Assembly (NCBI RefSeq): GCF_003334305.1
Contig: NZ_QOWS01000009.1
Length of the DNA: 64,000 nt
From: Escherichia coli
GTDB lineage: Bacteria; Pseudomonadota; Gammaproteobacteria; Enterobacterales; Enterobacteriaceae
Direction: 5' to 3' (one strand)
The position numbers and the translations under genes were made by a program. Positions within the stretch are counted from its first letter, which is position 1. Every line of letters starts with the position of its first letter. Shown here one piece after another: positions 1 through 27,443 of this stretch. The notes beneath the pieces were generated by a model, which worked only from the letters and a program-made list of their open reading frames with translations, did not search any database and had not been told where the DNA came from.

Positions 1-1224
1 CAGACGCTGATGCACGCCAAAACGATGCTGTTCATCGATAATCACCAGCGCCAGACCGTTAAACTGCACCTGTTCCTGGAAGATGGCGTGTGTACCGACA
101 ATCATCTGCACCTGACCGCTGGCGATGGCTTCCTGCTGTGCCAGTCGCGCTTTACCTTTCTGCTTACCGGCGAGCCAGCCCACTTCGATACCGAGCGGTG
201 CAAACCAGTTGCGGAAGTTATTGGCGTGCTGCTCGGCGAGTAATTCGGTTGGTGCCATCAGGGCCACCTGTTTGCCGTGGGCAATCGCACGCAGCGCGGC
301 GAGGGCGGCGACCAGTGTTTTACCGGAACCTACATCGCCCTGCACCAGGCGCATCATTGGAACATCCAGCGCCATATCATGCTCGATCTCCGCCACTACG
401 CGTGCCTGTGCGCCCGTTGGCTTGAACGGTAAGGCGGCGAGGAGTTTATTTTTCAGCGCGTCATTGGCGCTCAGCGGCTGGGCATGAAAACGCTGTGCTC
501 CGGCACGTAAGGCTAACATGCTGAGGTTGTGCGCCAGCAGTTCTTCCAGAATCAGACGACGTTGCGCCGGATGCTGCCCGGTTTCCAGATCGCTAAGCTG
601 TAGCGTCGGCGGCGGGCGGTGCAAAGTGCGCAACGCTTCCGGTAGCGTCATCATTCCTTGTGACAGTTCCGGCGGCAGGAGTTCTTCAATGGCGCAGGTG
701 TCGAGCAGATCCAGCGCCTGGTCGGTTAATTTACGCAGCGTGGCCTGCTTTACGCCTTCCGTTGTTGGATAAACCGGCGTGAGCGTTTCCTGTAATTCTG
801 GCGTGCTGAGATCGCCCTGCACGCGGTATTCCGGGTGGATCATCTCCGCACCATATTTACCGCGCTTTGCTTCGCCATAAGCCAGTACACGGCGGCCCGT
901 CGCCAGGCTATTTTTCATTGCCGCGCTGAAATTGAAAAAGCGCATGGTGAGGATGCCGGAACCGTCGCTGATCTGGCAGGTCATCATCCGCCGACCGCCG
1001 AAGGAGATATTGCAGTTCAGCACTTCGCCTTCCACCGTGGCATAAACGCCCGGCAGTAGTTCTCCGATGGGGTAGAGATGGGTGCGATCTTCGTAGCGCA
1101 GGGGAAGGTGTAAGAGTAGATCCTGCACGGTATGCAGGTTGATTTTCGCCAGTTTGTTACTAAGTGCTGCGCCAACGCCCGTTAGGGAACTGAGTGGGAC
1201 AGCATCTAACAGGCGACCTTTCAT
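1..1224 (-). CDS. recG: ATP-dependent DNA helicase RecG, N-terminal part; gene continues beyond window start
   Basis: Minus-strand ATG at 1222-1224 reads MKGRLLDA...; in-frame Walker A region DVPMMRLVQGDVGSGKT decoded near 300-350; no stop before window edge, so absent from ORF track. Confidence 0.9.
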   Translation of the reverse strand, partial: MKGRLLDAVPLSSLTGVGAALSNKLAKINLHTVQDLLLHLPLRYEDRTHLYPIGELLPGVYATVEGEVLNCNISFGGRRMMTCQISDGSGILTMRFFNFSAAMKNSLATGRRVLAYGEAKRGKYGAEMIHPEYRVQGDLSTPELQETLTPVYPTTEGVKQATLRKLTDQALDLLDTCAIEELLPPELSQGMMTLPEALRTLHRPPPTLQLSDLETGQHPAQRRLILEELLAHNLSMLALRAGAQRFHAQPLSANDALKNKLLAALPFKPTGAQARVVAEIEHDMALDVPMMRLVQGDVGSGKTLVAALAALRAIAHGKQVALMAPTELLAEQHANNFRNWFAPLGIEVGWLAGKQKGKARLAQQEAIASGQVQMIVGTHAIFQEQVQFNGLALVIIDEQHRFGVHQRL

Positions 1225-1229
1225 GGCAC

Positions 1230-1919
1230 TTACCCTGCAGCCTGCATAGTAGCCCACCAGTCGGCATCAGCTTCGATCTCGCCTTGCTGATTGACGTGGG
1301 GATAAGGCAGGCCTTTGCGTTTTGCGACTTTCGCCAGCACCGGATAGCCGCCTTCAAACAACAGGCGTTGTTGCTCTGCTTCCGGCAACATGCTGTTTTC
1401 ACGCAGGTACATGCCTGCATTTTGCCGCTGACGCTGGGCTTCGTAAAGAATGAGGGCTGAGGCAACGGAAACATTCAGCGACTGCACCATGCCGATCATC
1501 GGAATGATGATGTCCTGATCCGCCAGGGCCAATGCTTCCTGCGTGATGCCCGTTTTCTCCTGTCCCATCAAAATGCAGGTCGGGCGAGTGTAATCAATTT
1601 CGCGGAAATCGACAGCGTTATCAGAAAGATGGGTTGCCAGAATCTGCATGCCCTGGCCTTTGAGATGAGCGACGGCATCGCCAATGGTGCGGTGTGTTTT
1701 CACCTGTACCCAGCTGTTACTACCCGCCGCTGCCGAAGCCATGGTGCGCATGCGGCTACCAGGCCAGACGGCGTGAACTTCATGTACGCCAACGGCATCT
1801 GCGGTACGAATAATCGCAGAAACGTTATGAGGTTTGTGGACCTGCTCCATGCAGACGGTCAGATCAGGCTGCCGCCTGGCGAGCATTTCGCAGATGCGTG
1901 CATAACGTGTTGGGTTCAT
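1230..1919 (-). CDS. trmH: tRNA (Gm18) 2'-O-methyltransferase
   Basis: 229-aa ORF; SpoU-type methyltransferase sequence; lies between spoT and recG as in the E. coli spoT operon. Confidence 0.95.
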   Translation of the reverse strand: MNPTRYARICEMLARRQPDLTVCMEQVHKPHNVSAIIRTADAVGVHEVHAVWPGSRMRTMASAAAGSNSWVQVKTHRTIGDAVAHLKGQGMQILATHLSDNAVDFREIDYTRPTCILMGQEKTGITQEALALADQDIIIPMIGMVQSLNVSVASALILYEAQRQRQNAGMYLRENSMLPEAEQQRLLFEGGYPVLAKVAKRKGLPYPHVNQQGEIEADADWWATMQAAG

Positions 1920-1925
1920 AAAACA

Positions 1926-4034
1926 TTAATTTCGGTTTCGGGTGACTTTAATCACGTCTGGCATCACGCGGATTTTGCGCATGATATTCGCCAGATGCAC
2001 ACGGTCACGGGCGGTCAGACGAATAAAGGCGCTGTAGACGCGACCATCTTTCTCTTCCGTATTCAAACTTTGAATATTCGAAGTCGTGGTGTTAATTGCC
2101 GCCGTCAGGTTTGCCAGCGCGCCCTGATGATTGAACATCTCCACCTTGATTTCGGTGATGAACTCCTGCGCCGTCTCTTTATCCCATTCCACAGCCATAA
2201 ACTTCTCTGGCTCTTTCTGGTAGCCACGGATATTACGGCAGGATTCATGGTGGATCACCAGACCTTTACCGGGGCTGACGTGGGCGATAATCGGGTCGCC
2301 AGGAATAGGGCGGCAGCATTTCGCAAAGGTGATCAGCACGCCATCGGCACCTTTAATGGGCAGATGTCCGTGGCTTTGGGTTGCCGGTGGAATGGAGGCG
2401 TCCCCATGTTGCAGATTTTTCGCGACCACCACGCTCATTGCGTTACCAAGTCCGATTTCTGCCAGCAGATCGTCAAGCGTTGCCAGCTTCATGCGATCCA
2501 GCTCGCGCTGAATATTTTCCTGCGGGATTTCATTCAGCTTACGGCTACCACCCAAAGCATGGTTGAGCAGACGACGGCCCAGGCTTACAGAATCATCACG
2601 CTTGAGGTTTTTCAGCAACTGACGAATTTTGGCGCGCGCTTTTGAGCTAACGACAAAGTTCAGCCACGCGGCATTCGGGCGAGCGCCCGGTGCGGTAATG
2701 ATTTCAACGGTTTGACCGCTGGTAAGCGGCTGCGACAGCGGGTAAGGCTGGCGGTCAACGCGTGCGCCCACGCAGGCATGACCGATATCGGTATGCACTG
2801 CATAAGCGAAGTCGACGGGCGTTGCACCGGCAGGCAGCTCGACAATTCGCCCTTCCGGTGTGAAAACGTAAATCTCATCCGGGAAGAGATCGGATTTAAC
2901 GCTCTCGATAAATTCAAACGAACTACCGGCGCTCTGTTGCAGCTCCAGCAGGCTTTGCATCCAGCGCTGGGCGCGGATTTGCGCGGTGGTGCTGGTTTCG
3001 CCGTGCTCTTTATAAGCCCAGTGCGCGGCAACACCCATCTCCGCCATCTGATCCATATCTTCGGTACGGATCTGGACCTCAACCGGCACACCGTGCGGGC
3101 CGATCATCGAGGTGTGCAAAGACTGATAGCCGTTCGCTTTTGGAATGGCGATGTAGTCTTTCACGCGACCCGGACGCGGCTTGTACAGGCTATGCATTTG
3201 CCCGAGCACGCGATAACAGGTGTCAGAATCATTGACGATCACGCGGAAAGCGTAGATGTCCATGATTGAGTGAAAACGCTGCTCTTTGAGCACCATTTTG
3301 CAGTAAATCGAATAAAGATGCTTTTCGCGACCACTGACGCGGCACGGTATTCCCGCTTCCTGCAAACGCCCTTCGATTTCAGAGAGGATTTTTTGGATCA
3401 TCTCTTTACGGTTGCCGCGCGCGGCTTTCACCACTTCTTTAATTACGCGGTAACGATTGGGATACAGCGCCTCAAAACCCAGCTCTTCGAGTTCGGTTTT
3501 AATGTGGTGGATACCTAAACGGTGCGCCAGCGGGCTATAAATTTCGAGAGTTTCACGGGCGATGCGGCGACGTTTGTCCGGGCGAAGTGAGCCCAGCGTG
3601 CGCATGTTGTGGGTACGGTCGGCAAGTTTGATGAGGATGACGCGGATATCCTGCACCATCGCCATAATCATCTTGCGAAAGTTTTCGGCCTGCGCCTCTT
3701 TCTTATCGCGGAACTTGAGTTTATCAAGTTTCGACACCCCCTCTACCAGCTCGGCGACGCTTTTACCAAAAAGCTGTTCCATATCCTGGTAGGTGGCGGG
3801 AGTATCTTCAATCACGTCATGCAGCAGCGCCGCCATCAGCGTTTCATAGTCGAGTTTCATCTCGGCCAGAATGCAGGCAACCGCTACCGGGTGCGTGATA
3901 TAGGGTTCACCGCTTGAACGTGTTTGCCCCTCGTGAGCATCACGTGCAACGAGATACGCCTGCCGCAGACGCTTGATTTGGTCTTCCGGCAGGTAGGTTT
4001 GAATCAGTTGATTCAGGCTTTCAAACAGATACAA
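1926..4034 (-). CDS. spoT: bifunctional (p)ppGpp synthetase/hydrolase SpoT
   Basis: 702-aa ORF with HD hydrolase and RelA/SpoT synthetase regions; length matches E. coli SpoT. Confidence 0.97.
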   Translation of the reverse strand: MYLFESLNQLIQTYLPEDQIKRLRQAYLVARDAHEGQTRSSGEPYITHPVAVACILAEMKLDYETLMAALLHDVIEDTPATYQDMEQLFGKSVAELVEGVSKLDKLKFRDKKEAQAENFRKMIMAMVQDIRVILIKLADRTHNMRTLGSLRPDKRRRIARETLEIYSPLAHRLGIHHIKTELEELGFEALYPNRYRVIKEVVKAARGNRKEMIQKILSEIEGRLQEAGIPCRVSGREKHLYSIYCKMVLKEQRFHSIMDIYAFRVIVNDSDTCYRVLGQMHSLYKPRPGRVKDYIAIPKANGYQSLHTSMIGPHGVPVEVQIRTEDMDQMAEMGVAAHWAYKEHGETSTTAQIRAQRWMQSLLELQQSAGSSFEFIESVKSDLFPDEIYVFTPEGRIVELPAGATPVDFAYAVHTDIGHACVGARVDRQPYPLSQPLTSGQTVEIITAPGARPNAAWLNFVVSSKARAKIRQLLKNLKRDDSVSLGRRLLNHALGGSRKLNEIPQENIQRELDRMKLATLDDLLAEIGLGNAMSVVVAKNLQHGDASIPPATQSHGHLPIKGADGVLITFAKCCRPIPGDPIIAHVSPGKGLVIHHESCRNIRGYQKEPEKFMAVEWDKETAQEFITEIKVEMFNHQGALANLTAAINTTTSNIQSLNTEEKDGRVYSAFIRLTARDRVHLANIMRKIRVMPDVIKVTRNRN

Positions 4035-4052
4035 GGGCGACCCGCTTTGTGA

Positions 4053-4328
4053 TTAACGACGACCTTCAGCAATAGCGGTAACGGCTTGTAATTCAGCGGC
4101 TTCCTGCTCTTGCTGTTCCTGGCGTTCGCGAACGTCGAGGATCTGGTTGTTGATCAGACCTTCTTCGATTTCGCGCAGCGCGATTACAGTGGTTTTATCG
4201 TTTTCTTCCGGTACCAGCGGATCCTTTCCGCCTACCTGCATCTGACGAGCGCGACGCGCGGCGACCAGTACCAGGTCAAAACGGTTACCAATTTTCTCTA
4301 CAGCGTCCTGAACAGTTACGCGTGCCAT
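4053..4328 (-). CDS. rpoZ: RNA polymerase omega subunit
   Basis: 91-aa [32 protein letters not shown]...; immediately upstream of spoT. Confidence 0.97.
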
Positions 4329-4382
4329 ACTTAAAAAGCTCCACAGGTGAAGAAATGACTGGGCATGATACTGAAATCAGGT

Positions 4383-5130
<748 letters not shown>

Positions 5131-5149
5131 TTTCCGCATTTGCCTGTGA

Positions 5150-7560
<2,411 letters not shown>

Positions 7561-7851
7561 GGTTCTCTCCCTAAAAATCTGTCTGGCAGGGTAGCGATTT
7601 GTGCGTATTGTCACGATTGAGATTTTTTAAGGTGAGAGGAAATTGATAACTTGTAGTTATGTGAAATCGCTATTTTCTGTAGCGTAGATGCATTCTTCTG
7701 ACTTCTTGTCTGAGAAAATGCATAAGAAAAAATAGGTTAAAATTGAGGGGTGGAAAAGAAAGGTGCAATGTTTAGCCATTGTGTTCACCGCACCTGGACT
7801 TTGGCTTACGCATCGGGCATCTCAATCAACAAAAAGAGTTTTTAGTTTCTG

Positions 7852-8676
7852 CTATTTCTTCTCTGTAATTTTTACACTGTTTTCCAACTGCTTGATGCTG
7901 ACCTGCGGGGTCGGCAACTCCTCAGGCATGGTTCCGCCAAGTTCCTGAATGGTTTGCCTCACCTTGCTACCCACGTCAAAGTGTGTGGTATTAGCTTGCT
8001 GTTTTGAATTCACGCCATCCCGCTTGAGTTTTTCTTCTGTTTGGGTAGCTCGAAAGAGATTAGCCGCCAGTTCTGTTGAACCCATATGATCCAGGATCTT
8101 CTGACTCTTTTTCAGCCCCTTCAGTTGGTGGATGGCTTTCTGATCTAATCCACCATACAGCCCCTGGTAACCATGATTCTGAAATATGGCGAAATCAGTA
8201 GCTGTCGCTACCCCAGCTTGCTGTGCTGCCTCAACCAATTGTTTGTTATGTTCTTTCAACTCATTTCTCAGAAACAGACGCTTTTCGTCTTCACGAAGTT
8301 GCTTAAATGCTTCATCGTCAGCAAGCTCCTGCCGTCGGGTCTGGATAGCAAAATAAGTCTGCCCTGCCGCAATGACCGGTTTCGCAGGGTCGCCGTTTTG
8401 TACTACCAGGTAACAGGCATAGCGGGAGAGATGAACATCTTCAAGTTCTCGTTGAGCCCCTGAACCTAATACAACCATTTTGGTGGTTTCAACGAAATGG
8501 TCAGATGCAGCTTGATTGCTGGCTTCGCACGCTTGAGTCGCGCGGGCCAGTACCTTTTGAAAATTGCGCCAGTCCCGATAATCCAGTAACGGTGCCAATT
8601 CTCTAGCTGACCAAAATTCTTGCCCTTCAGTGCCATAATGCCGTATTTCTTCAAAAGGTTGATGATGTTCGTTCAT
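7852..8676 (-). CDS. dinD: DNA damage-inducible protein D
   Basis: ORF 7852-8688; start trimmed to MNEHHQPFEEIRHYGTEGQEFW (274 aa); LexA box upstream. Confidence 0.9.
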   Translation of the reverse strand: MNEHHQPFEEIRHYGTEGQEFWSARELAPLLDYRDWRNFQKVLARATQACEASNQAASDHFVETTKMVVLGSGAQRELEDVHLSRYACYLVVQNGDPAKPVIAAGQTYFAIQTRRQELADDEAFKQLREDEKRLFLRNELKEHNKQLVEAAQQAGVATATDFAIFQNHGYQGLYGGLDQKAIHQLKGLKKSQKILDHMGSTELAANLFRATQTEEKLKRDGVNSKQQANTTHFDVGSKVRQTIQELGGTMPEELPTPQVSIKQLENSVKITEKK

Positions 8677-8719
8677 TGCCCACTCCATGTGATATCGATT
8701 GCAAAGAAAGTAAATCTGT

Positions 8720-8896: not shown

Positions 8897-9760
8897 TTAC
8901 TCAATATTCTGAATCTGCTCGCGCATCTGCTCAATCAACACTTTCAGCTCGATGGCGGAGTTTGTCACTTCGGCATTGATAGATTTCGACGCAAGAGTGT
9001 TCGACTCGCGGTTGAATTCCTGCATCATAAAGTCCAGACGACGACCAACGGCTTCTTTTTTCTTCAGAATGTTGTAGGTCTCTTTGACATGCGCTTCCAG
9101 GCGGTCCAGTTCTTCGGCAACGTCAATTCGTTGTGCCAGCAGAACCAGCTCCTGCTCCAGACGGTTGTTTTCCAACTGAACCTGAGCATCTTCCAGCTTC
9201 GCGACCAGACGCTCACGCTGCCATTGCAGGATTTCCGGCATATGGGCGCGGACTTTGACCACTTCGGCGGTGACGCCTTCCAGACGCTGCTCGATCAATG
9301 CTTTCAGCGCCTGACCTTCGGTTTCGCGCGCGACGATAAAGTCGTCCAGCGTACCATCCAACGCCGCGAGAATTTCAGCGGCAATCGCGTCGAGATCCTG
9401 CTCCTGGGCTGCCATCACGCCCGGCCAGCGTAGAATATCAACCGGGTTGATTTCCCCTTCGTCACTCTGCATTTTTACCCAGTTCGCGGCAGTTACCAGC
9501 TGTTTAGCCAGTTTTTCATTGAGGATCAGCTCACCTTGTGCGCTAACATCTGGCTCATAGCGCAGGGTACATTCCACTTTACCGCGCGTCAGGCGAGAAC
9601 GAATACGCTCGCGAACGACAGGTTCAAGGCTACGGAACTGCTCCGGCAGACGAAAGTAAGTTTCCAGATAACGCTGGTTTACCGAGCGCATTTCCCAGGT
9701 TGCGCTCCCCCATTCACCCTTGATTTCACGCCGGGCGTAGGCGGTCATACTGCGGATCAT
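8897..9760 (-). CDS. yicC: UPF0701 protein YicC (YicC-family stress-induced protein)
   Basis: 287-aa ORF MIRSMTAYARREIKGEWGSATWEMRSVNQRYLE...; divergent from rph. Confidence 0.93.
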   Translation of the reverse strand: MIRSMTAYARREIKGEWGSATWEMRSVNQRYLETYFRLPEQFRSLEPVVRERIRSRLTRGKVECTLRYEPDVSAQGELILNEKLAKQLVTAANWVKMQSDEGEINPVDILRWPGVMAAQEQDLDAIAAEILAALDGTLDDFIVARETEGQALKALIEQRLEGVTAEVVKVRAHMPEILQWQRERLVAKLEDAQVQLENNRLEQELVLLAQRIDVAEELDRLEAHVKETYNILKKKEAVGRRLDFMMQEFNRESNTLASKSINAEVTNSAIELKVLIEQMREQIQNIE

Positions 9761-9886
9761 AGACGTTCCTGTTTATAAAAGGAGAGGTGGAAGGATTATA
9801 GCCATCGATGCCTTGTCAGGATAGGAATAACCGCCGGAAGTCCGTATAATGCGCAGCCACATTTGTTTCAAGCCGGAGATTTCAAT

Positions 9887-13871: not shown

Positions 13872-14546
13872 GTGAAGGTGAAAAACAATTCACAGCTGAT
13901 GATGCCGCGCGAAAAAATGCTGAAGTTTGGTATTAGCGCCTTAACGGATGTCGAGCTGCTGGCGCTATTTCTGCGTACCGGAACGCGCGGTAAAGATGTA
14001 TTAACCCTGGCAAAAGAGATGCTGGAGAATTTCGGCTCTCTTTATGGCTTGTTAACCTCTGAATATGAACAATTTAGTGGCGTTCATGGAATTGGCGTGG
14101 CGAAATTTGCCCAGTTAAAGGGGATTGCTGAACTGGCGCGGCGTTACTACAACGTGCGGATGCGTGAAGAAAGCCCTTTACTCAGCCCGGAGATGACGAG
14201 GGAATTTTTACAAAGCCAGCTCACGGGTGAGGAGCGGGAGATCTTTATGGTGATCTTTCTCGACTCCCAACACCGGGTTATAACGCATAGCCGTCTTTTT
14301 TCCGGCACGCTAAACCATGTTGAAGTCCATCCTCGGGAAATTATCCGCGAAGCGATAAAAATAAACGCCTCGGCGCTGATCCTTGCACATAATCACCCTT
14401 CGGGTTGTGCTGAACCCAGTAAAGCGGATAAACTCATTACTGAACGGATAATAAAGAGTTGTCAGTTCATGGATTTACGCGTGCTCGACCATATCGTGAT
14501 TGGGCGTGGAGAGTATGTTTCTTTTGCCGAACGCGGCTGGATTTAA
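13872..14546 (+). CDS. yicR: RadC-like JAB domain protein YicR
   Basis: 224-aa ORF with JAMM-like HNHPSG motif; exact start codon uncertain by about 2 codons. Confidence 0.88.
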
Positions 14547-15016: not shown

Positions 15017-15187
<171 letters not shown>

Positions 15188-15204
15188 TTCTCGCTTTGAT
15201 GTAA

Positions 15205-15234
15205 CAAAAAACCTCGCTCCGGCGGGGTTTTTTG
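15205..15234 (+). terminator. rho-independent terminator after rpmBG
   Basis: CCTCGC-TCCG-GCGGGG hairpin followed by TTTTTTG. Confidence 0.75.
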
Positions 15235-15284
15235 TTATCTGCTTGCCCCCATATTGACTGCATCTGTTCATTCCTGGAGATGCT

Positions 15285-16132: not shown

Positions 16133-17897
<1,765 letters not shown>

Positions 17898-18221
17898 AGT
17901 AAATAGCTGACTTATGGATGTGCTGGGGATTCTATGTATTTAGCTGTGGCTTTACCATTACTTTTCCCGTTTTTGACTTAAATAGCAATTTACCCGCCAA
18001 TTCTTGCTGAACATCTATACTTTTTTTGTATTTTTATGCGATTCATTGATTTCTGCTGTACGTGCAGGAAGGAATCGCAGAGCAACAGTGAAAGAATATG
18101 GTTGCTAATGATTTTATTTGATTGATTTCTTTATTGAAAATCAACAATGTGCTTAAAAATCATTCGGGTCGGATTGCCGCGAAAGAAGTGATACACTAGC
18201 GCGTCAATATCAGTGCGGTAT

Positions 18222-18262
18222 CAGTATTCAGGTAGCTGTTGAGCCTGGGGCGGTAGCGTGCT
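18222..18262 (+). promoter_or_regulatory. JUMPstart element with ops site in waaQ leader
   Basis: GGCGGTAGCGTG at 18249-18260 matches the ops consensus; upstream GGTAGC direct repeat; about 50 nt before waaQ. Confidence 0.85.
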
Positions 18263-18309
18263 TTTTCTGCTTCACCTTAATCGGATAATCTCAACAAAAA
18301 GAGTTACTT

Positions 18310-19368
18310 GTGGATAAGCCATTTCGAAGAATTTTGCTCATTAAGATGCGTTTTCATGGGGATATGTTATTAACTACTCCCGTCATTAGTTCGCTGAAAA
18401 AAAATTACCCTGACGCAAAAATCGATGTGCTGCTTTATCAGGACACCATCCCGATCCTGTCTGAAAATCCAGAGATTAACGCGCTCTACGGCATAAAAAA
18501 TAAAAAAGCAAAAGCCTCAGAAAAAATTGCCAACTTTTTTCATCTCATCAAGGTATTACGTGCCAATAAGTATGACCTTATCGTCAATCTTACCGATCAA
18601 TGGATGGTTGCTATACTGGTTCGCTTATTAAATGCCCGTGTGAAAATTTCCCAGGATTATCATCATCGGCAGTCTGCTTTTTGGCGTAAAAGTTTCACCC
18701 ATTTGGTGCCGTTGCAGGGTGGAAATGTGGTGGAAAGTAACTTATCCGTGCTGACACCATTGGGACTTGATTCGTTGGTGAAGCAGACAACCATGAGTTA
18801 CCCGCCTGCAAGCTGGAAACGTATGCGTCGCGAACTTGATCACGCTGGTGTTGGACAAAATTATGTGGTTATCCAACCTACGGCGCGGCAAATCTTCAAA
18901 TGCTGGGACAACGCCAAGTTTTCCGCTGTGATTGATGCCTTACATGCTCGTGGTTATGAAGTCGTTCTGACGTCCGGCCCAGATAAAGACGATCTGGCCT
19001 GCGTCAATGAAATTGCGCAGGGATGCCAGACGCCACCAGTAACGGCGCTGGCTGGAAAGGTGACCTTCCCGGAACTTGGTGCGTTAATCGATCATGCGCA
19101 GCTGTTTATTGGCGTTGATTCCGCACCGGCGCATATTGCCGCTGCAGTTAATACGCCGCTGATATCGCTGTTTGGTGCGACAGACCATATTTTCTGGCGT
19201 CCCTGGTCAAATAACATGATTCAATTCTGGGCGGGAGATTACCGGGAAATGCCAACGCGCGATCAGCGTGACCGAAATGAGATGTATCTTTCGGTTATTC
19301 CGGCGGCAGATGTCATTGCTGCTGTCGATAAATTACTGCCCTCCTCCACGACAGGTACGTCGTTATGA
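18310..19368 (+). CDS. waaQ: LPS heptosyltransferase III
   Basis: GT9 heptosyltransferase; ORF begins with GTG at 18310 (RILLIK motif included); a TTG at 18334 is an alternative start. Confidence 0.85.
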   Translation: MDKPFRRILLIKMRFHGDMLLTTPVISSLKKNYPDAKIDVLLYQDTIPILSENPEINALYGIKNKKAKASEKIANFFHLIKVLRANKYDLIVNLTDQWMVAILVRLLNARVKISQDYHHRQSAFWRKSFTHLVPLQGGNVVESNLSVLTPLGLDSLVKQTTMSYPPASWKRMRRELDHAGVGQNYVVIQPTARQIFKCWDNAKFSAVIDALHARGYEVVLTSGPDKDDLACVNEIAQGCQTPPVTALAGKVTFPELGALIDHAQLFIGVDSAPAHIAAAVNTPLISLFGATDHIFWRPWSNNMIQFWAGDYREMPTRDQRDRNEMYLSVIPAADVIAAVDKLLPSSTTGTSL

Positions 19369-20489
19369 TCGTTGCTTTTTGTTTATATAAATATTTTCCC
19401 TTTGGCGGTTTGCAGCGTGATTTTATGCGTATTGCTCAGACAGTCGCCGCCCGAGGTCATCATGTTCGGGTTTATACCCAGTCGTGGGAAGGCGAATGCC
19501 CTGATGTATTTGAACTGATCAAAGTGCCGGTTAAATCGCATACCAATCACGGGCGCAATGCGGAGTATTTTGCCTGGGTGCAAAAACATTTACGCGAACA
19601 TCCCGTCGATAAAGTCGTTGGATTCAACAAAATGCCGGGGCTGGACGTTTATTATGCCGCTGATGTTTGTTATGCCGAGAAAGTAGCGCAGGAAAAAGGC
19701 TTTTTCTATCGCCTGACGTCACGTTATCGCCATTATGCCGCCTTTGAGCGGGCAACCTTCGAACAGGGCAAGCCGACACAGCTGCTGATGCTGACAGATA
19801 AGCAAATCGCCGATTTCCAGAAACATTATCAGACTGAAGCGGAGCGTTTTCATATTCTGCCACCGGGGATTTATCCTGATCGTAAATATAGCCAGCAGCC
19901 AGCCAATAGCCGTGAAATCTTCCGTAAGAAGAATGGAATAACCGAACAACAATATTTATTGTTGCAGGTCGGTTCAGACTTCACGCGTAAAGGTGTCGAT
20001 CGTTCCATTGAAGCACTTGCTTCGTTACCGGATTCGCTGCGCCACAACACATTGCTATATGTTGTTGGGCAGGATAAACCGCGAAAATTTGAGGCGCTGG
20101 CAGAAAAACGCGGTGTGCGCAGTAATGTTCACTTTTTCTCGGGGCGCAATGATGTCTCGGAATTAATGGCGGCGGCGGATTTATTACTGCATCCTGCCTA
20201 CCAGGAAGCGGCGGGAATTGTGCTGCTGGAAGCGATTACTGCAGGATTACCGGTACTAACAACTGCCGTTTGTGGCTATGCGCATTATATTGTCGACGCT
20301 AATTGCGGCGAGGCTATTGCTGAGCCATTCCGCCAGGAAACATTGAATGAGATTTTACGCAAAGCGTTAACGCAATCTTCATTGCGCCAGGCCTGGGCGG
20401 AAAATGCGCGACATTATGCTGATACACAAGATTTATACAGTCTGCCAGAGAAAGCGGCGGATATCATAACGGGTGGTCTGGATGGTTGA
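19365..20489 (+). CDS. waaG: LPS glucosyltransferase I (GT4)
   Basis: 374-aa ORF; ATGA overlap with waaQ stop. Confidence 0.93.
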
Positions 20490-21279
20490 ACTTAAAGAGC
20501 CGTTTGCCACGTTATGGCGCGGCAAAGATCCTTTTGAGGAAGTTAAAACCTTGCAGGGTGAGGTATTTCGTGAACTGGAAACTCGCCGTACTCTGCGCTT
20601 TGAAATGGCGGGCAAAAGCTATTTTCTCAAATGGCATCGCGGCACGACCCTGAAAGAGATAATCAAAAATTTACTCTCATTGCGGATGCCAGTATTAGGC
20701 GCTGACCGCGAATGGAATGCGATTCATCGACTGCGGGATGTCGGCGTTGATACTATGTATGGGGTGGTATTTGGCGAAAAAGGCATGAATCCGCTGACCA
20801 GAACTTCATTTATTATTACCGAAGATCTGACACCAACCATAAGTCTGGAAGATTACTGTGCTGACTGGGCGACTACCCCTCCAGATGTTCGCGTAAAGCG
20901 TATGCTTATTAAGCGTGTCGCGACGATGGTGCGCGATATGCATGCTGCGGGCATTAACCACCGTGACTGTTATATCTGTCATTTCCTGCTGCACTTGCCT
21001 TTTTCCGGTAAGGAAGAGGAGTTAAAAATTTCGGTAATTGACCTGCACCGGGCGCAGCTTCGCACGCGCGTTCCACGTCGTTGGCGGGATAAAGATCTTA
21101 TTGGGCTTTATTTTTCTTCGATGAATATCGGCCTGACTCAGCGGGATATCTGGCGGTTTATGAAAGTGTATTTTGCCGCCCCGCTTAAAGACATTCTCAA
21201 GCAGGAACAAGGACTGCTGTCGCAAGCAGAAGCAAAAGCCACAAAAATCAGGGAAAGAACGATTCGAAAATCGTTGTAA
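20482..21279 (+). CDS. waaP: LPS core heptose(I) kinase
   Basis: ORF 20473-21279; start trimmed to [21 protein letters not shown] (265 aa). Confidence 0.92.
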
Positions 21280-21294
21280 TTTCCGGAGAGAAAT

Positions 21295-22311
21295 ATGAGT
21301 GCCCACTATTTTAATCCACAAGAGATGATCAATAAGACAATCATCTTCGATGAAAGGCCAGCGGCGTCAGTGGCATCATCATTCCATGTTGCTTATGGCA
21401 TTGATAAAAACTTTCTTTTTGGTTGTGGTGTTTCAATCACGTCAGTTTTGTTACATAACAACGACGTGAGTTTTGTTTTCCACGTTTTTATTGATGATAT
21501 CCCTGAAGCCGATATCCAGCGTTTAGCCCAATTGGCGAAAAGCTATCGTACCTGTATCCAGATCCATCTAGTAAATTGTGAACGGCTTAAGGCATTACCG
21601 ACGACCAAAAATTGGTCTATTGCCATGTATTTCCGTTTTGTAATTGCAGATTACTTTATTGATCAACAAGATAAGATCCTTTACCTGGATGCTGATATCG
21701 CCTGTCAGGGAAACTTAAAGCCGCTGATAACAATGGATCTTGCCAATAACGTTGCTGCTGTTGTTACTGAACGCGATGCTAACTGGTGGTCGTTACGGGG
21801 TCAAAGTCTGCAGTGTAATGAACTTGAAAAGGGTTACTTTAATTCAGGTGTCCTGTTAATTAATACACTAGCGTGGGCGCAGGAGTCCGTTTCTGCTAAA
21901 GCGATGTCGATGCTTGCTGATAAAGCCATCGTTTCCCGTTTAACCTATATGGATCAAGATATCCTTAATCTTATCCTGTTAGGGAAAGTTAAATTCATTG
22001 ATGCTAAATACAATACGCAATTTAGTTTAAATTATGAATTAAAAAAATCATTTGTTTGTCCAATTAATGATGAAACCGTATTAATTCATTATGTCGGCCC
22101 GACAAAACCCTGGCATTACTGGGCCGGTTATCCAAGTGCGCAACCTTTTATCAAAGCCAAAGAAGCATCGCCCTGGAAAAATGAACCGTTAATGCGGCCA
22201 GTTAACTCAAACTATGCTCGTTATTGCGCCAAGCATAATTTTAAACAAAACAAACCAATTAACGGGATAATGAATTATATTTATTATTTTTATTTAAAGA
22301 TAATAAAATGA
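21295..22311 (+). CDS. waaO: GT8 LPS alpha-1,3-glucosyltransferase (R1-type WaaO)
   Basis: 338-aa GT8 retaining glycosyltransferase; first gene of the AT-rich outer-core block. Confidence 0.75.
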   Translation: MSAHYFNPQEMINKTIIFDERPAASVASSFHVAYGIDKNFLFGCGVSITSVLLHNNDVSFVFHVFIDDIPEADIQRLAQLAKSYRTCIQIHLVNCERLKALPTTKNWSIAMYFRFVIADYFIDQQDKILYLDADIACQGNLKPLITMDLANNVAAVVTERDANWWSLRGQSLQCNELEKGYFNSGVLLINTLAWAQESVSAKAMSMLADKAIVSRLTYMDQDILNLILLGKVKFIDAKYNTQFSLNYELKKSFVCPINDETVLIHYVGPTKPWHYWAGYPSAQPFIKAKEASPWKNEPLMRPVNSNYARYCAKHNFKQNKPINGIMNYIYYFYLKIIK

Positions 22312-22327
22312 AATTGAGAAAAGTTAA

Positions 22328-23323
22328 ATGAATGAATTTATAAAAGAACGGTTTTCGTATTTAGCAGATAATAAAAAAGAAAACGCCCCAGAGCTAAATG
22401 TTTCCTACGGTATCGATAAGAATTTTTTGTATGGTGCTGGCGTTTCAATTTCTTCCGTTTTGATTAATAATTCAGATATTAATTTTGTCTTTCATGTTTT
22501 CACTGATTATGTGGATGATGATTATTTAAAGTCATTTAATGAAACAGCAAAACAATTTAATACCTCAATTATTGTATATTTAATTGACCCCAAATACTTT
22601 GCTGATCTGCCGACGTCACAGTTTTGGTCGTACGCGACATACTTCAGGGTATTGTCTTTTGAATATCTGAGTGAAAGTATTTCCACACTGCTGTATCTGG
22701 ATGCCGATGTTGTTTGTAAAGGAAGCCTGAAACCTCTCACAGAAATTATATTTAAAGATGAGTTTGCTGCGGTCATTCCTGACAATGATAGTACTCAGGC
22801 GGCATGTGCAAAACGCCTCAACATTCCCGAAATGAATGGACGTTATTTCAATGCAGGCGTTATCTATGTCAATCTTAAAAAATGGCATGAAGCAAATTTG
22901 ACACCGTATTTACTCAAACTTTTACGAGGGGAAACTAAATATGGCTCTCTTAAATATTTAGATCAGGATGCGTTGAATATCGCATTTAATATGAATAATA
23001 TCTACCTTGCGAAGAATTTTGATACTATTTATACCCTGAAAAACGAACTTTATGATCGTAGTCATCGAAAGTATCAGCAAACCATTACCGATAAAACAGT
23101 GTTGATTCACTATACAGGGATAACTAAACCATGGCATAGCTGGGCTGGATATCCGTCTGCATCATACTTTAATATCGCGCGTGAACAATCTCCCTGGAAG
23201 AAATATCCTCTTAAAGAGGCGCGGACTGTTGCAGAAATGCAGAAACAATATAAGCATCTGTTTGCCCATGGTGAGTATATAAAAGGCATAACTTCATTAA
23301 TTAAGTACAAGCTTAAGAAATAA
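22328..23323 (+). CDS. waaT: GT8 LPS alpha-1,2 hexosyltransferase (R1-type WaaT)
   Basis: 331-aa GT8 paralogue; position between waaO and waaY. Confidence 0.7.
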   Translation: MNEFIKERFSYLADNKKENAPELNVSYGIDKNFLYGAGVSISSVLINNSDINFVFHVFTDYVDDDYLKSFNETAKQFNTSIIVYLIDPKYFADLPTSQFWSYATYFRVLSFEYLSESISTLLYLDADVVCKGSLKPLTEIIFKDEFAAVIPDNDSTQAACAKRLNIPEMNGRYFNAGVIYVNLKKWHEANLTPYLLKLLRGETKYGSLKYLDQDALNIAFNMNNIYLAKNFDTIYTLKNELYDRSHRKYQQTITDKTVLIHYTGITKPWHSWAGYPSASYFNIAREQSPWKKYPLKEARTVAEMQKQYKHLFAHGEYIKGITSLIKYKLKK

Positions 23324-23332
23324 ATTACTCTT

Positions 23333-24025
23333 ATGATTACAAGTATACGTTATCGCGGCTTCTCATTTTATTACAAAGATAATGATAATAAATATAAAGA
23401 AATCTTTGATGAAATACTGGCCTATAATTTTAAAACAGTAAAAGTATTACGTAATATTGATGATACCAAAGTATCATTGATTGATACGAAATATGGTCGC
23501 TATGTTTTTAAAGTCTTTGCCCCGAAAACGAAAAGGAATGAACGTTTTTTAAAATCTTTTGTAAAAGGTGACTACTATCAGAATTTGATCGTTGAAACCG
23601 ATCGTGTCAGAAGTGCAGGTCTTACTTTTCCTAATGATTTTTATTTTCTGGCTGAGCGTAAAATTTTCAACTATGCCAGTGTTTTTATTATGCTTATCGA
23701 GTATGTCGAGGGCGTAGAGCTCAATGATATGCCGATTATTCCAGAAAATGTTAAAGCAGAAATTAAGGCTTCAATGGAAAAATTGCATGCCTTAAATATG
23801 CTATCGGGCGACCCACACCGGGGTAATTTTATCGTTAGTAAAGATGGTGTCAGGATAATTGACCTATCCGGTAAAAGCTGTACGGCAGAGCGTAAAGCTC
23901 GTGATCGTCTGGCCATGGAACGTCACCTGGGTATTGCCAACGAAATAAAAGATTATGGCTACTATTCAGTAATCTACAGAACCAAACTACGCAAATTTAT
24001 TAAAAAATTAAAAGGCAAAGCGTAA
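23333..24025 (+). CDS. waaY: LPS core heptose(II) kinase
   Basis: 230-aa ORF; kinase-like; conserved position in waa clusters. Confidence 0.85.
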   Translation: MITSIRYRGFSFYYKDNDNKYKEIFDEILAYNFKTVKVLRNIDDTKVSLIDTKYGRYVFKVFAPKTKRNERFLKSFVKGDYYQNLIVETDRVRSAGLTFPNDFYFLAERKIFNYASVFIMLIEYVEGVELNDMPIIPENVKAEIKASMEKLHALNMLSGDPHRGNFIVSKDGVRIIDLSGKSCTAERKARDRLAMERHLGIANEIKDYGYYSVIYRTKLRKFIKKLKGKA

Positions 24026-24050
24026 ACCACACAGTCAAAACGGAACCAAC

Positions 24051-25076
24051 ATGGATTTATTAGCTGAGAGTATTACTGAAGTCGCTGTCTCTGGGGAAAT
24101 TGCTAACACCGATCGTGTGTTAAATATCGCTTACGGTATTGACCGTAACTTTTTATTTGGTGCGGCAGTATCTATGCAATCAGTTGTTATGCATAACCCG
24201 GACCTTGCGGTTAAGTTTCATCTCTTTACCGACTACATTGATGAAGATTATCTACAACGTGTTAATGCTTTTACCAGCAAAAATGCTAACGTTGAAGTAA
24301 TAATTTATAAAGTCTCCAATGCCTTTATTGATATCTTCCCCAGCCTGAAACAGTGGTCTTATGCAACATTCTTCCGTTTAGTTGCGTTCCAGTATTTGAG
24401 TGAAACTATTGAAAATCTGTTATATATCGATGCTGATGTCATCTGTAAAGGCTCATTAGCTGGATTGCTTGATATTAATTTTGATGAGGATAAGTTCGCA
24501 GCTGTTATTAAAGATGTGCCTTTTATGCAGGAAAAACCAGCGAAGCGTCTGGCTATAGAGGGACTTCCAGGGAATTATTTCAACGCCGGTGTAGTATATC
24601 TGCAGCTTGAAGCATGGGCGAAAAATGATTTTATGAATAAAGCCATTGCTATGCTGGCAAGTGACCCGCAGCACACGAAGTATAAATGCCTTGATCAGGA
24701 TATTTTAAATATTCTGTTCTTTGGTCATTGTATTTTTATTAGCGGCGATTATGATTGCTTTTATGGCATTGACTATGAGTTAAAAAATAAAAGCGATGAA
24801 GATTATAAAAAGACCATTACCGATGATACTAAGCTGATTCATTATGTTGGCGTAACGAAGCCCTGGAACGACTGGACGAATTATCCCTGCCAGAAGTATT
24901 TTAATGAGGCTTATCAGGCTTCTTGCTGGAATGATGTGGCGTTTATTCCAGCCACGAATGAAAAGCAGTATCAAGTGAAATATCAACATGCAAAGAAAAA
25001 TGGTGATACGTTTAACGCTTTTATTTACTTCATTAAATTTAAATTAAATAAGTATAAAAGAAAACTATTTGGATAA
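24051..25076 (+). CDS. waaW: GT8 LPS alpha-1,2 hexosyltransferase (R1-type WaaW)
   Basis: 341-aa third GT8 paralogue, sharing the NIAYGIDxNFLFG N-terminal motif with waaO/waaT. Confidence 0.7.
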   Translation: MDLLAESITEVAVSGEIANTDRVLNIAYGIDRNFLFGAAVSMQSVVMHNPDLAVKFHLFTDYIDEDYLQRVNAFTSKNANVEVIIYKVSNAFIDIFPSLKQWSYATFFRLVAFQYLSETIENLLYIDADVICKGSLAGLLDINFDEDKFAAVIKDVPFMQEKPAKRLAIEGLPGNYFNAGVVYLQLEAWAKNDFMNKAIAMLASDPQHTKYKCLDQDILNILFFGHCIFISGDYDCFYGIDYELKNKSDEDYKKTITDDTKLIHYVGVTKPWNDWTNYPCQKYFNEAYQASCWNDVAFIPATNEKQYQVKYQHAKKNGDTFNAFIYFIKFKLNKYKRKLFG

Positions 25077-25160
25077 TAATAAAAATCATGGATGTCTGAG
25101 TTACAATAATAATTAAGGATGAGTACTATCATATTTTATTAGTTCAGGCAAGAGAACACG

Positions 25161-26144
25161 ATGAGCAATGATTACCCTTTAGTATCCATAATAATACCGA
25201 CGTATAATTCATCTGATTACATTACTGAAACTCTAACGAAATTAGAAAAACAAACTTACCCAAATTTTGAAATTGTTATTGTTAATGATGGTTCTAAAGA
25301 TAACACATCAAACGTTTTGAGAGAGTATGGGTTAACCCACTCTCGATTAATTATTATCAATAAAGAAAATGGCGGTGTTTCGTCTGCCAGGAATACAGGT
25401 ATCCGCAAGGCGCAAGGACAGTTTATATGTTTTATGGATGATGATGATGAGATAGATCCTAACTATCTGCTGAAGATGTATACCAGACAACATGAGACGG
25501 GAGGGGATGCGATTTATTGTGGGCTTTATGGCCATTATATAAAAGATGGTGTTACTTACTCACCTATAAATACAGAGTTTAATGAAGGATCTTTACTTTT
25601 CGACTTTTTTTATAAAAAGGTTAGATTCCATATAGGGTGCTTGTTTATAAGAAAACAACTTCTGGAAGAGAATAATCTTTTTTTTGATGAAGATTTACGA
25701 CTAGGAGAAGATCTTGATTTTATCTATCGACTGCTAATTACATGCGATATGTATGCGGTTCCATATTATATGTATAAGCATAACTATAGAGAAAATTCCT
25801 TAATGAACTCATGTAGAACCATCACTCATTATCGACATGAGTCATTTGCGCACGAAAGAATCTACTCTTCTGTGATGCAGTTATACAAAGGTAACCGGAA
25901 AGAAGAAATTCATACATTATTGAGTCAAAATAGAGCTTATCATAAAACTCGTTATTTATGGAATGTTCTACTTAATGGTGATTTTAAACTATTGAATCAA
26001 TTAGTTGAAAACAATGATAAAGAATTAAGAGATTGTAATCTTCCTGGCAAGAGAGATAAGAGACGAGCAAAAATATTAGCATCAAAAAATTATATTCTCT
26101 GGAGGATGGTAAGACTGGTAAATAGAAAAAAGAATAAACGTTAG
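25161..26144 (+). CDS. waaV: GT2 LPS beta-glucosyltransferase (R1-type WaaV)
   Basis: 327-aa GT2 with SIIIPTYNSSDYITETL and FMDDDDEIDP motifs; a GT2 here (not GT25 WaaX or GT9 WaaK) indicates R1. Confidence 0.7.
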   Translation: MSNDYPLVSIIIPTYNSSDYITETLTKLEKQTYPNFEIVIVNDGSKDNTSNVLREYGLTHSRLIIINKENGGVSSARNTGIRKAQGQFICFMDDDDEIDPNYLLKMYTRQHETGGDAIYCGLYGHYIKDGVTYSPINTEFNEGSLLFDFFYKKVRFHIGCLFIRKQLLEENNLFFDEDLRLGEDLDFIYRLLITCDMYAVPYYMYKHNYRENSLMNSCRTITHYRHESFAHERIYSSVMQLYKGNRKEEIHTLLSQNRAYHKTRYLWNVLLNGDFKLLNQLVENNDKELRDCNLPGKRDKRRAKILASKNYILWRMVRLVNRKKNKR

Positions 26145-26189
26145 ATCTTGCATTAAATAACCCATCCTCGTAGCATAGGTTGAAACTAT

Positions 26190-27443
26190 ATGTCGTTTTG
26201 TTGGAATGAAATTAATTCTGGTATAAAGTCTTTAATTCTCATATTATGTATTTTTTCTTTAATGACTTTGTCTTTATGGGATGATGTTGCAACAAAGTTT
26301 CTTCATGCAGCTGGAATTATATCTGCATTGTATTTTCTTGCGACACCAAAAAAAACAATAACTAATAATCCTACTTTGTTAATTTTCATCTCATTATGTC
26401 TTTTGGGTATCGTAAATATCATCTGGTATTCACATTATAAAGTTTCAGGCTCTGTTTATACCAATGCATATCGTGGCCCAATGGAAACTGGAAAAATTGC
26501 CTTGTGTAGCGCTTTTATTTTCTTAGTTCTTTTTGCTAAAAATGAGATGAGAACAAAAATAAAATTTGGGAAACTAATTCTGTTCGCATCCCTGGCAACG
26601 CAGTTACTTTTTTTTGCGCATGCCATGTGGCAACATTTCTATTTAAACGTCGACCGTGTTGCATTATCAGCTTCCCACGCTACAACAGCAGGCTACATCA
26701 TCCTTTTTCCTTCTTTACTGGCATCAATTCTCATTTTAAAATCCGACTTTAGACATAAAACAACATTATATACAATTAACTTCATGCTTAGCTTATGTGC
26801 TGTCATAGTAACTGAGACGCGTGCAGCCATATTAGTGTTTCCATTCTTTGCGTTAATATTAATCGTAATGGATAGTTATATTAATAAGCGAATTAATTAT
26901 AAGTTATATTGTTTTATTACGATTGCATTATTAGCAGGTGTATTTTCTTTTAAAGATACATTGCTTATGAGAATGAATGACTTAAATAACGATTTAGTTA
27001 ATTATTCGCATGATAACACCAGAACTTCAGTCGGTGCCCGTCTGGCAATGTATGAAGTTGGCTTAAAAACATATTCTCCAATAGGACAATCACTGGAAAA
27101 ACGTGCGGAAAAAATACATGAACTAGAAGAAAAAGAGCCTAGATTGAGTGGCGCTTTACCCTATGTAGATTCTCATTTGCATAACGATCTCATAGATACG
27201 TTATCAACGCGTGGTATTCCTGGAGTTGTATTAACAATTTTAGCATTTTCAGCAATACTCATATATGCCTTAAGAACTGCTAAAGAACCTTATATTTTAA
27301 TCTTGCTTTTTTCACTACTGGTAGTAGGACTAAGTGATGTAATACTCTTTTCTAAACCGGTTCCGACTGCTGTGTTTATCACCATAATATTGCTTTGTGC
27401 TTATTTTAAAGCACAATCGGACCAATGTTTATTAGAGAAGTAA
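26190..27443 (+). CDS. waaL: O-antigen ligase
   Basis: 417-aa polytopic membrane protein at the canonical end of the outer-core operon. Confidence 0.88.
   Translation: MSFCWNEINSGIKSLILILCIFSLMTLSLWDDVATKFLHAAGIISALYFLATPKKTITNNPTLLIFISLCLLGIVNIIWYSHYKVSGSVYTNAYRGPMETGKIALCSAFIFLVLFAKNEMRTKIKFGKLILFASLATQLLFFAHAMWQHFYLNVDRVALSASHATTAGYIILFPSLLASILILKSDFRHKTTLYTINFMLSLCAVIVTETRAAILVFPFFALILIVMDSYINKRINYKLYCFITIALLAGVFSFKDTLLMRMNDLNNDLVNYSHDNTRTSVGARLAMYEVGLKTYSPIGQSLEKRAEKIHELEEKEPRLSGALPYVDSHLHNDLIDTLSTRGIPGVVLTILAFSAILIYALRTAKEPYILILLFSLLVVGLSDVILFSKPVPTAVFITIILLCAYFKAQSDQCLLEK

Follow-up and report, generated by a model that had tools for sequence, protein, structure and literature searches.

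Is the ops sequence ahead of waaQ in this Escherichia coli strain a working RfaH signal, and what else governs the divergent genes on either side of it? We analyzed a 64-kb stretch of E. coli DNA (the window, to which all positions refer), in which a first-pass annotation had described an AT-rich divergent control region of about 410 bp. The gap between the waaA and waaQ open reading frames measures exactly 412 bp, with 38.3% GC as against 48.8% for the whole window, and separates waaA-coaD on the minus strand from the waaQ operon on the plus strand (Table 1). The neighboring genes carry the annotation of strain 214-4, which is 100% identical over the queried segment, 17600 to 18600. The order of genes in the operon is that of CFT073 and not that of K-12, and we take it to be an R1-like core type. 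The distal core genes (GT8, waaY, GT8, GT2, and ligase; window 22000 to 27000) have 32 to 38% GC versus roughly 42 to 55% in adjacent regions. Such low GC is typical of horizontally exchanged outer-core cassettes, and fits a picture of counter-silencing and the H-NS coating reported for CFT073. A search for small open reading frames in the spacer found ten of 21 to 46 amino acids; those lying within it overlap the variable blocks, with no cross-allele conservation by eye.

Table 1. Features of the waaA-waaQ region, in window coordinates
Feature	Position	Strand	Basis or remark
coaD, second gene of the waaA-coaD unit	16133-16612	-	NCBIfam TIGR01510 match; RefSeq annotation of strain 214-4
waaA (Kdo transferase), reads away from the spacer	16620-17897	-	NF004385, full length, 905.7 bits; annotation
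waaA-waaQ divergent intergenic spacer, mosaic	17898-18309	.	Three-allele alignment, cross-genus alignment, composition
Conserved islands in the spacer	17898-17986, 18021-18049, 18154-18265	.	Three-allele and cross-genus alignments
Allele-specific variable blocks in the spacer	17987-18019, 18050-18152	.	Three-allele and cross-genus alignments
Conserved waaA-proximal block, candidate waaA promoter and 5' UTR	17904-17966	-	95% mean identity, 18 sequences, >10 genera
Central variable block, unrelated among alleles A, B, and C	18050-18152	.	Alignment; tolerates natural IS1 and IS10-like insertions
TCGGAT at the -35 position, poor consensus match	18169-18174	+	17 bp upstream of the -10 hexamer; TCGG invariant and AT nearly so in 18 sequences
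waaQ/rirA promoter, extended -10, TG-a-TACACT (TGaTACACT)	18189-18197	+	Last base 7 nt upstream of the RirA 5' end (from MG1655 b4760)
RirA sRNA ortholog, 72 nt here versus 73 in K-12	18204-18275	+	Full-length alignment to MG1655 b4760
JUMPstart element	18222-18260	+	RF01707; 5-bp stem 18229-18233/18243-18247, loop 18234-18242
ops, GGCGGTAGCGTG, non-template strand	18249-18260	+	Exact match
T-run just after ops	18262-18266	+	Kept in waaQ leaders, absent from most other JUMPstart loci
Weak Shine-Dalgarno-like AAGAG, 6 nt before GTG	18299-18303	+	Invariant in 18 leaders
waaQ (rfaQ, heptosyltransferase III), GTG start, first gene of the long core operon	18310-19368	+	NF007742, 714 bits; TIGR02201 profile from residue 7; GTG invariant across genera
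Remaining RfaH-dependent operon: waaG, waaP, waaO, GT8, waaY, GT8, GT2, O-antigen ligase	19365-27443	+	Strain 214-4 annotation; CFT073 order identical; composition

Farther from the spacer, positions 1 to 8709 of the window hold an integrated element adjoining the 3' side of yicC (8898 to 9761), where CFT073 has dinD instead. This element encodes a tyrosine integrase (7450 to 8709, minus strand), an HTH regulator, an AntA/AntB antirepressor, an Ash-family protein, and a TOPRIM/DUF927 primase-like gene, and looks like a P4-like or satellite-type island. The gene radC (about 13879 to 14546) is annotated as frameshifted in strain 214-4 and is intact in CFT073, O157:H7, and YJ3.

The homologous spacer is present in 5,425 of 5,426 complete E. 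coli genomes, and three alleles of it can be distinguished. Allele A, that of the window, accounts for 4,410 of the 5,426 records at ≥99% identity to the window and includes O157:H7, O104:H4, and CFT073; the K-12 spacer is a minority allele, B (78.7% identity to the window), and strains with an R2-like gene set carry allele C (76.4%). All three have in common the conserved islands of Table 1, namely, 89 bp adjoining waaA, a 29-bp island in the interior, and the block on the waaQ side, and the two variable blocks are unrelated between alleles. Two independent natural insertions, both in allele C strains, fall in the central variable block: an IS1 (SW07163) and an ISVsa5/IS10-like element (E2). 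They occupy about 3215 to 3990 in locus L005 and about 3959 to 5300 in locus L131, equivalent to about 18057 to 18105 of the window, and each leaves about 160 to 200 bp by waaA and about 100 to 140 bp upstream of the waaQ start, which suggests that the waaA and waaQ promoter modules are separable and that the center of the spacer is dispensable. The 29-bp island (TTTTTTTGTATTTTTATGCGATTCATTGA) is invariant in the three E. coli alleles and largely kept in Citrobacter and Pluralibacter, with variable flanks; its role may be to bind a regulator or to serve either gene as an upstream promoter element.

We next turn to the ops sequence. The 12-mer GGCGGTAGCGTG had been claimed to be exact, and it is; it is also the sole match in the 64 kb even with one mismatch allowed. 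By itself, a 12-mer match counts for little: when the window is shuffled 100 times, at least one match at ≤1 mismatch arises in 24 cases. The surrounding sequence, previously called JUMPstart-like, is matched in full by the Rfam covariance model for JUMPstart, RF01707 (model positions 1 to 38 of 38), with 55.2 bits against a gathering score of 35 and an E value of 7e-11 in a 7-kb search or 6.4e-10 for the whole window. RF01707 is the only Rfam family above threshold anywhere in the window. Below threshold, the rpmB-rpmG terminator hairpin (AAAAAACCUCGCUCCGGCGGGGUUUUUU; 15160 to 15235) resembles istR, Leu_leader, RNAI, and others, and this similarity is that of a terminator only.

The bases that ops requires (PMC5995543) are all intact: GGCGGTAGnnTG on the non-template strand, G4, G5, T6, A7, the C3:G8 pair, and T11-G12. 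Following the base roles described previously (PMC5995543, PMC11001881), G5 and T6 correspond to 18253 and 18254, C3 and G8 to 18251 and 18256, and the pause position U11 to 18259. The element lies in the 5' untranslated leader of a polysaccharide-synthesis operon, between the inferred start of transcription at 18204 and the waaQ GTG at 18310, and ops itself follows that inferred start by 45 nt and precedes the start codon by 49 nt.

The same arrangement recurs in other genera. A DNA-pattern scan of species-representative genomes for the JUMPstart/ops core gave at least 120 loci. Among the matches listed, a WaaQ homolog starts 39 to 66 nt after ops in at least 25 loci (25/120), waaA is divergent and 352 to 383 nt upstream in at least 16 (16/120), and a T-rich stretch follows ops in at least 34 (34/120). 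Like the RF01707 elements of rfb, cps, kps, hly, and other loci, the waaQ element combines a hairpin and ops in the 5' leader of a long surface-polysaccharide operon. The waaQ leaders have one loop base more than the Rfam consensus and, in contrast to other RF01707 elements, a T-run after ops and a conserved 5' segment complementary to ops RNA. Exact enterobacterial JUMPstart/ops sequences also turned up on contigs labeled Arthrobacter (4 kb, coverage 2) and Chryseobacterium (a 799-kb contig) and in Erysipelotrichia, Peptococcaceae, and Wohlfahrtiimonas metagenome-assembled genomes (loci L025, L044, L066, L105, and L117 overall); these are likely products of contamination, misbinning, or mislabeling.

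The waaA-waaQ spacers themselves were compared in an alignment of 18 sequences, drawn from Escherichia, Citrobacter, Silvania, Pluralibacter, Kosakonia, Shimwellia, Cedecea, and others. Leaving aside the columns that the search pattern had imposed, the invariant or nearly invariant parts are the TG and TACA.T of the -10 region, TCGGAT, AAGAG, the GTG, and the waaA-proximal block; for the TG and TACA.T, invariance holds over more than 10 genera. In the window, the TG (18189 to 18190) and TACACT (18192 to 18197) form a sigma70 extended -10 element, and transcription of waaQ probably starts at about 18204, a position carried over from the K-12 annotation by alignment of the RirA 5' end, with the K-12 start itself taken as the same position because the RirA 5' ends align. 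The resulting leader is 106 nt long. A generic sigma70 scan of the region reported two weak sites, both in the variable block, and missed this promoter because its -35 element is poor. The K-12 promoter hexamers that Shimada et al. predicted do not line up with the start defined by RirA and were not adopted. Likewise, a 7-nt inverted repeat (18237 to 18243/18290 to 18296) is allele specific and was dismissed, and the fold of the whole leader (18195 to 18312) is no better than that of shuffled sequences (z = 0.29).

The MG1655 annotation starts waaQ at an ATG equivalent to 18346, 12 codons inside the GTG form. We consider the GTG to be the better start, and the K-12 start is probably 12 codons too short, because none of 18 leaders, representing more than 10 genera, departs from the GTG or the AAGAG, because the TIGR02201 heptosyltransferase III profile begins at residue 7 of the longer form, and because substitutions between alleles in the 12 intervening codons, as read from the alignment, are synonymous or conservative. 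In K-12, the promoter -10, JUMPstart, ops, and the weak AAGAG/GTG start are identical to those of the window and waaA is likewise divergent. The differences are the two unrelated variable blocks, an overall spacer identity of 79%, and a T-run after ops that is one T shorter in the window.

Divergent kdtA/rfaQ promoters were reportedly described by Clementz in 1992. Apart from that report, the proposal that the spacer also drives waaA-coaD, on its other side, finds support both in K-12 and here. The conserved waaA-proximal block contains candidate hexamers on the minus strand, read from the sequence as TGGTAA (17957 to 17952) and TAGAAT (17934 to 17929) with a 17-bp spacer, and from this match and the conservation of the block we infer that they form the waaA promoter. 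In K-12, an RpoD-holoenzyme SELEX peak lies in the waaQ-waaA spacer, which was also flagged as H-NS bound (PMC3946193). Further, Reg-Seq assayed the K-12 waaA-coaD promoter and assigned it to the (1, 0) architecture class: the assay revealed one new binding site, for which it identified no factor (PMC7567609).

The waaQ leader had also been named as the source of a small RNA, RirA, in K-12. Indeed, RefSeq annotates an ncRNA, rirA (b4760), at 3808166 to 3808238 of MG1655 (73 nt), and it maps to the leader of the window, which differs from it by 5 substitutions and by the loss of one T from the run that follows ops (about 92% identity). The mapped segment includes JUMPstart and ops, and its 5' end sits at the waaQ promoter, with the -10 element ending 7 nt upstream. 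Reviews from the discovering group agree, describing RirA as a 73-nt sRNA that contains JUMPstart and ops, has its 5' end in common with waaQ mRNA, and is reported to bind RfaH together with RNA polymerase (RNAP) in an ops-dependent manner; excess (overexpressed) RirA mimics an rfaH deletion (PMC5736990, PMC6358824, PMC8745692). Accumulation of a discrete RNA of about 73 nt and its binding to RfaH and RNAP are reported for K-12 only, and by analogy the near-identical segment of the window may behave in the same way.

For the RNA equivalent to RirA, structure prediction gives a single long hairpin that has the JUMPstart stem-loop at its tip and in which ops RNA is paired to the conserved 5' segment. 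This pairing is kept in 97.7% of cells, versus 29 to 56% in slid controls, and shuffling yields a value as high in 11 of 500 cases; because the search pattern dictates the 3' side and the structure comes from those very sequences, the evidence for a conserved long hairpin is only suggestive. As a single sequence, RirA folds better than shuffles in K-12 (z = -2.3) but not in the window allele (z = -0.66). An ops-like stretch at 18214 to 18225 (TGCGGTATCAGT, 7/12 matches) was considered as a second ops and rejected, as it has neither G8 nor the TG pause bases; complementarity to ops RNA accounts for it better.

These data bear on whether the 72-nt RNA has a role of its own in this strain. It could instead be a by-product of the ops pause, an arrested, terminated, or decaying leader fragment with no titrating role at natural levels. 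Every RirA phenotype in the reviews stems from overexpression, a terminator scan of 17800 to 18400 found none, leaving the RirA 3' end with no obvious intrinsic terminator, and the window allele folds no better than shuffled sequences. Against this stand the discrete species annotated in MG1655, the ops-dependent binding to RfaH with RNAP, and the conserved pairing of the 5' segment, in which changes preserve pairing. We therefore regard a mere by-product as possible but on the unlikely side.

A second question is whether the JUMPstart hairpin contributes at the RNA level. The stem lies directly upstream of ops, and one of its pairs was left free by the search pattern, the other stem positions being fixed by it and thus uninformative on covariation. 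Across 84 distinct elements the free pair covaries among four pair types (U:A in 56, A:U in 13, G:U in 8, G:C in 3, and a non-pair in 4) and is pairable in 80; waaQ leaders have A:U or G:U here, whereas most other RF01707 loci have U:A. From the end of the 5-bp stem (with its 9-nt loop) at 18247 to the pause position at 18259 the distance is 12 nt, or 11 nt with an extra U.G pair, although this spacing is set by the search pattern and its constancy is not independent evidence. A stem ending 11 to 12 nt before the pause nucleotide presumably resembles those of hairpin-stabilized (his-type) pauses.

A covarying hairpin at this distance behind the ops pause could set the lifetime of the pause or restrict backtracking of the RfaH-bound complex, and RfaH loading would then need more than the 12-nt DNA signal. 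RfaH-bound ops complexes do backtrack and need help escaping (PMC11001881), but on short scaffolds in vitro, RNAP pauses and RfaH is recruited with no signal other than ops (PMC5995543, PMC11001881), and the literature searched assigns the hairpin no such role. We judge it improbable that the nascent hairpin tunes the pause, and quite improbable that the upstream half of JUMPstart, together in waaQ leaders with the conserved 5' segment that pairs with ops RNA, acts at the RNA level. If it did, the longer RirA hairpin would form only after escape, and the 39-nt JUMPstart would gain a role beyond that of the 12-nt DNA signal.

The strongest evidence that ops works as an RfaH signal comes from published work on CFT073, whose spacer is identical to that of the window at 408 of 412 positions and from -36 through the start codon. 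The four substitutions (17969, 18057, 18090, and 18167) leave the -10 element, RirA segment, JUMPstart, ops, and leader untouched, and the operon order is the same. In CFT073, chromatin immunoprecipitation (ChIP) places a sigma70 peak ahead of ops, where transcription is predicted to start, and ChIP-seq detects RfaH along the rfa operon beyond the one ops that it has; H-NS and StpA coat the operon. When rfaH is deleted, RNAP 5.4 kb downstream falls to a traveling ratio of ≤0.1 to 0.34 (PMC9765446). The ops-to-start distance in the same study is 40 to 67 nt (PMC9765446). The gene for RfaH is present in 5,426 of 5,426 E. coli genomes. Recruitment of RfaH and distal polarity, experimentally shown on the CFT073 leader, would by identity of sequence extend to the leader of the window. 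The first-pass annotation had predicted that the waaQ operon depends on RfaH and had named a lack of polarity on distal waa genes in an rfaH mutant as the observation that would speak against it; the CFT073 data bear the prediction out, and the polarity is present.

We give next to no credence to the view that the 12-mer is a chance occurrence in an AT-rich spacer, with no role and a waaQ operon expressed without RfaH: near matches do arise in shuffled windows, and 34 ops-like sites inside coding regions of CFT073 do not bind RfaH (PMC9765446), but the exact match here forms part of a full-length JUMPstart, belongs to the non-template strand within a leader, is identical in all three E. coli alleles, and keeps its position ahead of waaQ in many genera, and RfaH ChIP and rfaH deletion polarity on the identical CFT073 leader have already refuted this view.

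Taken as a whole, the region is, with a probability that we put at about 95%, the canonical control region between the divergent units of the waa (LPS core) locus of E. coli, and its allele is the one that most E. coli carry; nothing contradicts this model. RNAP is known to pause at U11 of ops, where the non-template strand forms a small hairpin with C3:G8 as the closing pair and T6 flipped out; RfaH reads G5 and T6, is activated, and hyperstabilizes the pause until the complex escapes, after which it remains with RNAP, aids ribosome recruitment, and prevents Rho-dependent termination (PMC5995543, PMC11001881). In the window, the extended -10 promoter would start transcription at about 18204 and yield a leader whose JUMPstart ends in ops. 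RNAP reaching ops would pause at 18259, and the non-template hairpin would offer G5 and T6 to RfaH, which would load and then refold its C-terminal domain. Once loaded, RfaH would exclude NusG and so block Rho-dependent termination, suppress pausing across the AT-rich, H-NS-coated distal genes, and help to bring a ribosome to the weak AAGAG/GTG start 49 nt downstream. The short RNA from the same start (RirA) would carry ops and, as in K-12, could bind RfaH and RNAP and, in excess, damp the activity of RfaH. At its other end, the spacer would bear the waaA-coaD promoter.

As a control region with an RfaH signal, the waaA-waaQ spacer is already known, intact, and ordinary: it is textbook for K-12 and has been shown directly for CFT073. 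For the majority allele of E. coli, the present analysis adds the exact coordinates of the promoter, start, RirA ortholog, JUMPstart, ops, and start codon, and it adds evidence that the control elements are identical across three spacer alleles while the center of the spacer is replaceable. For the organism, this region controls whether E. coli makes a complete LPS core and thereby affects O-antigen attachment, outer-membrane integrity, resistance to serum and antibiotics, and phage receptors.
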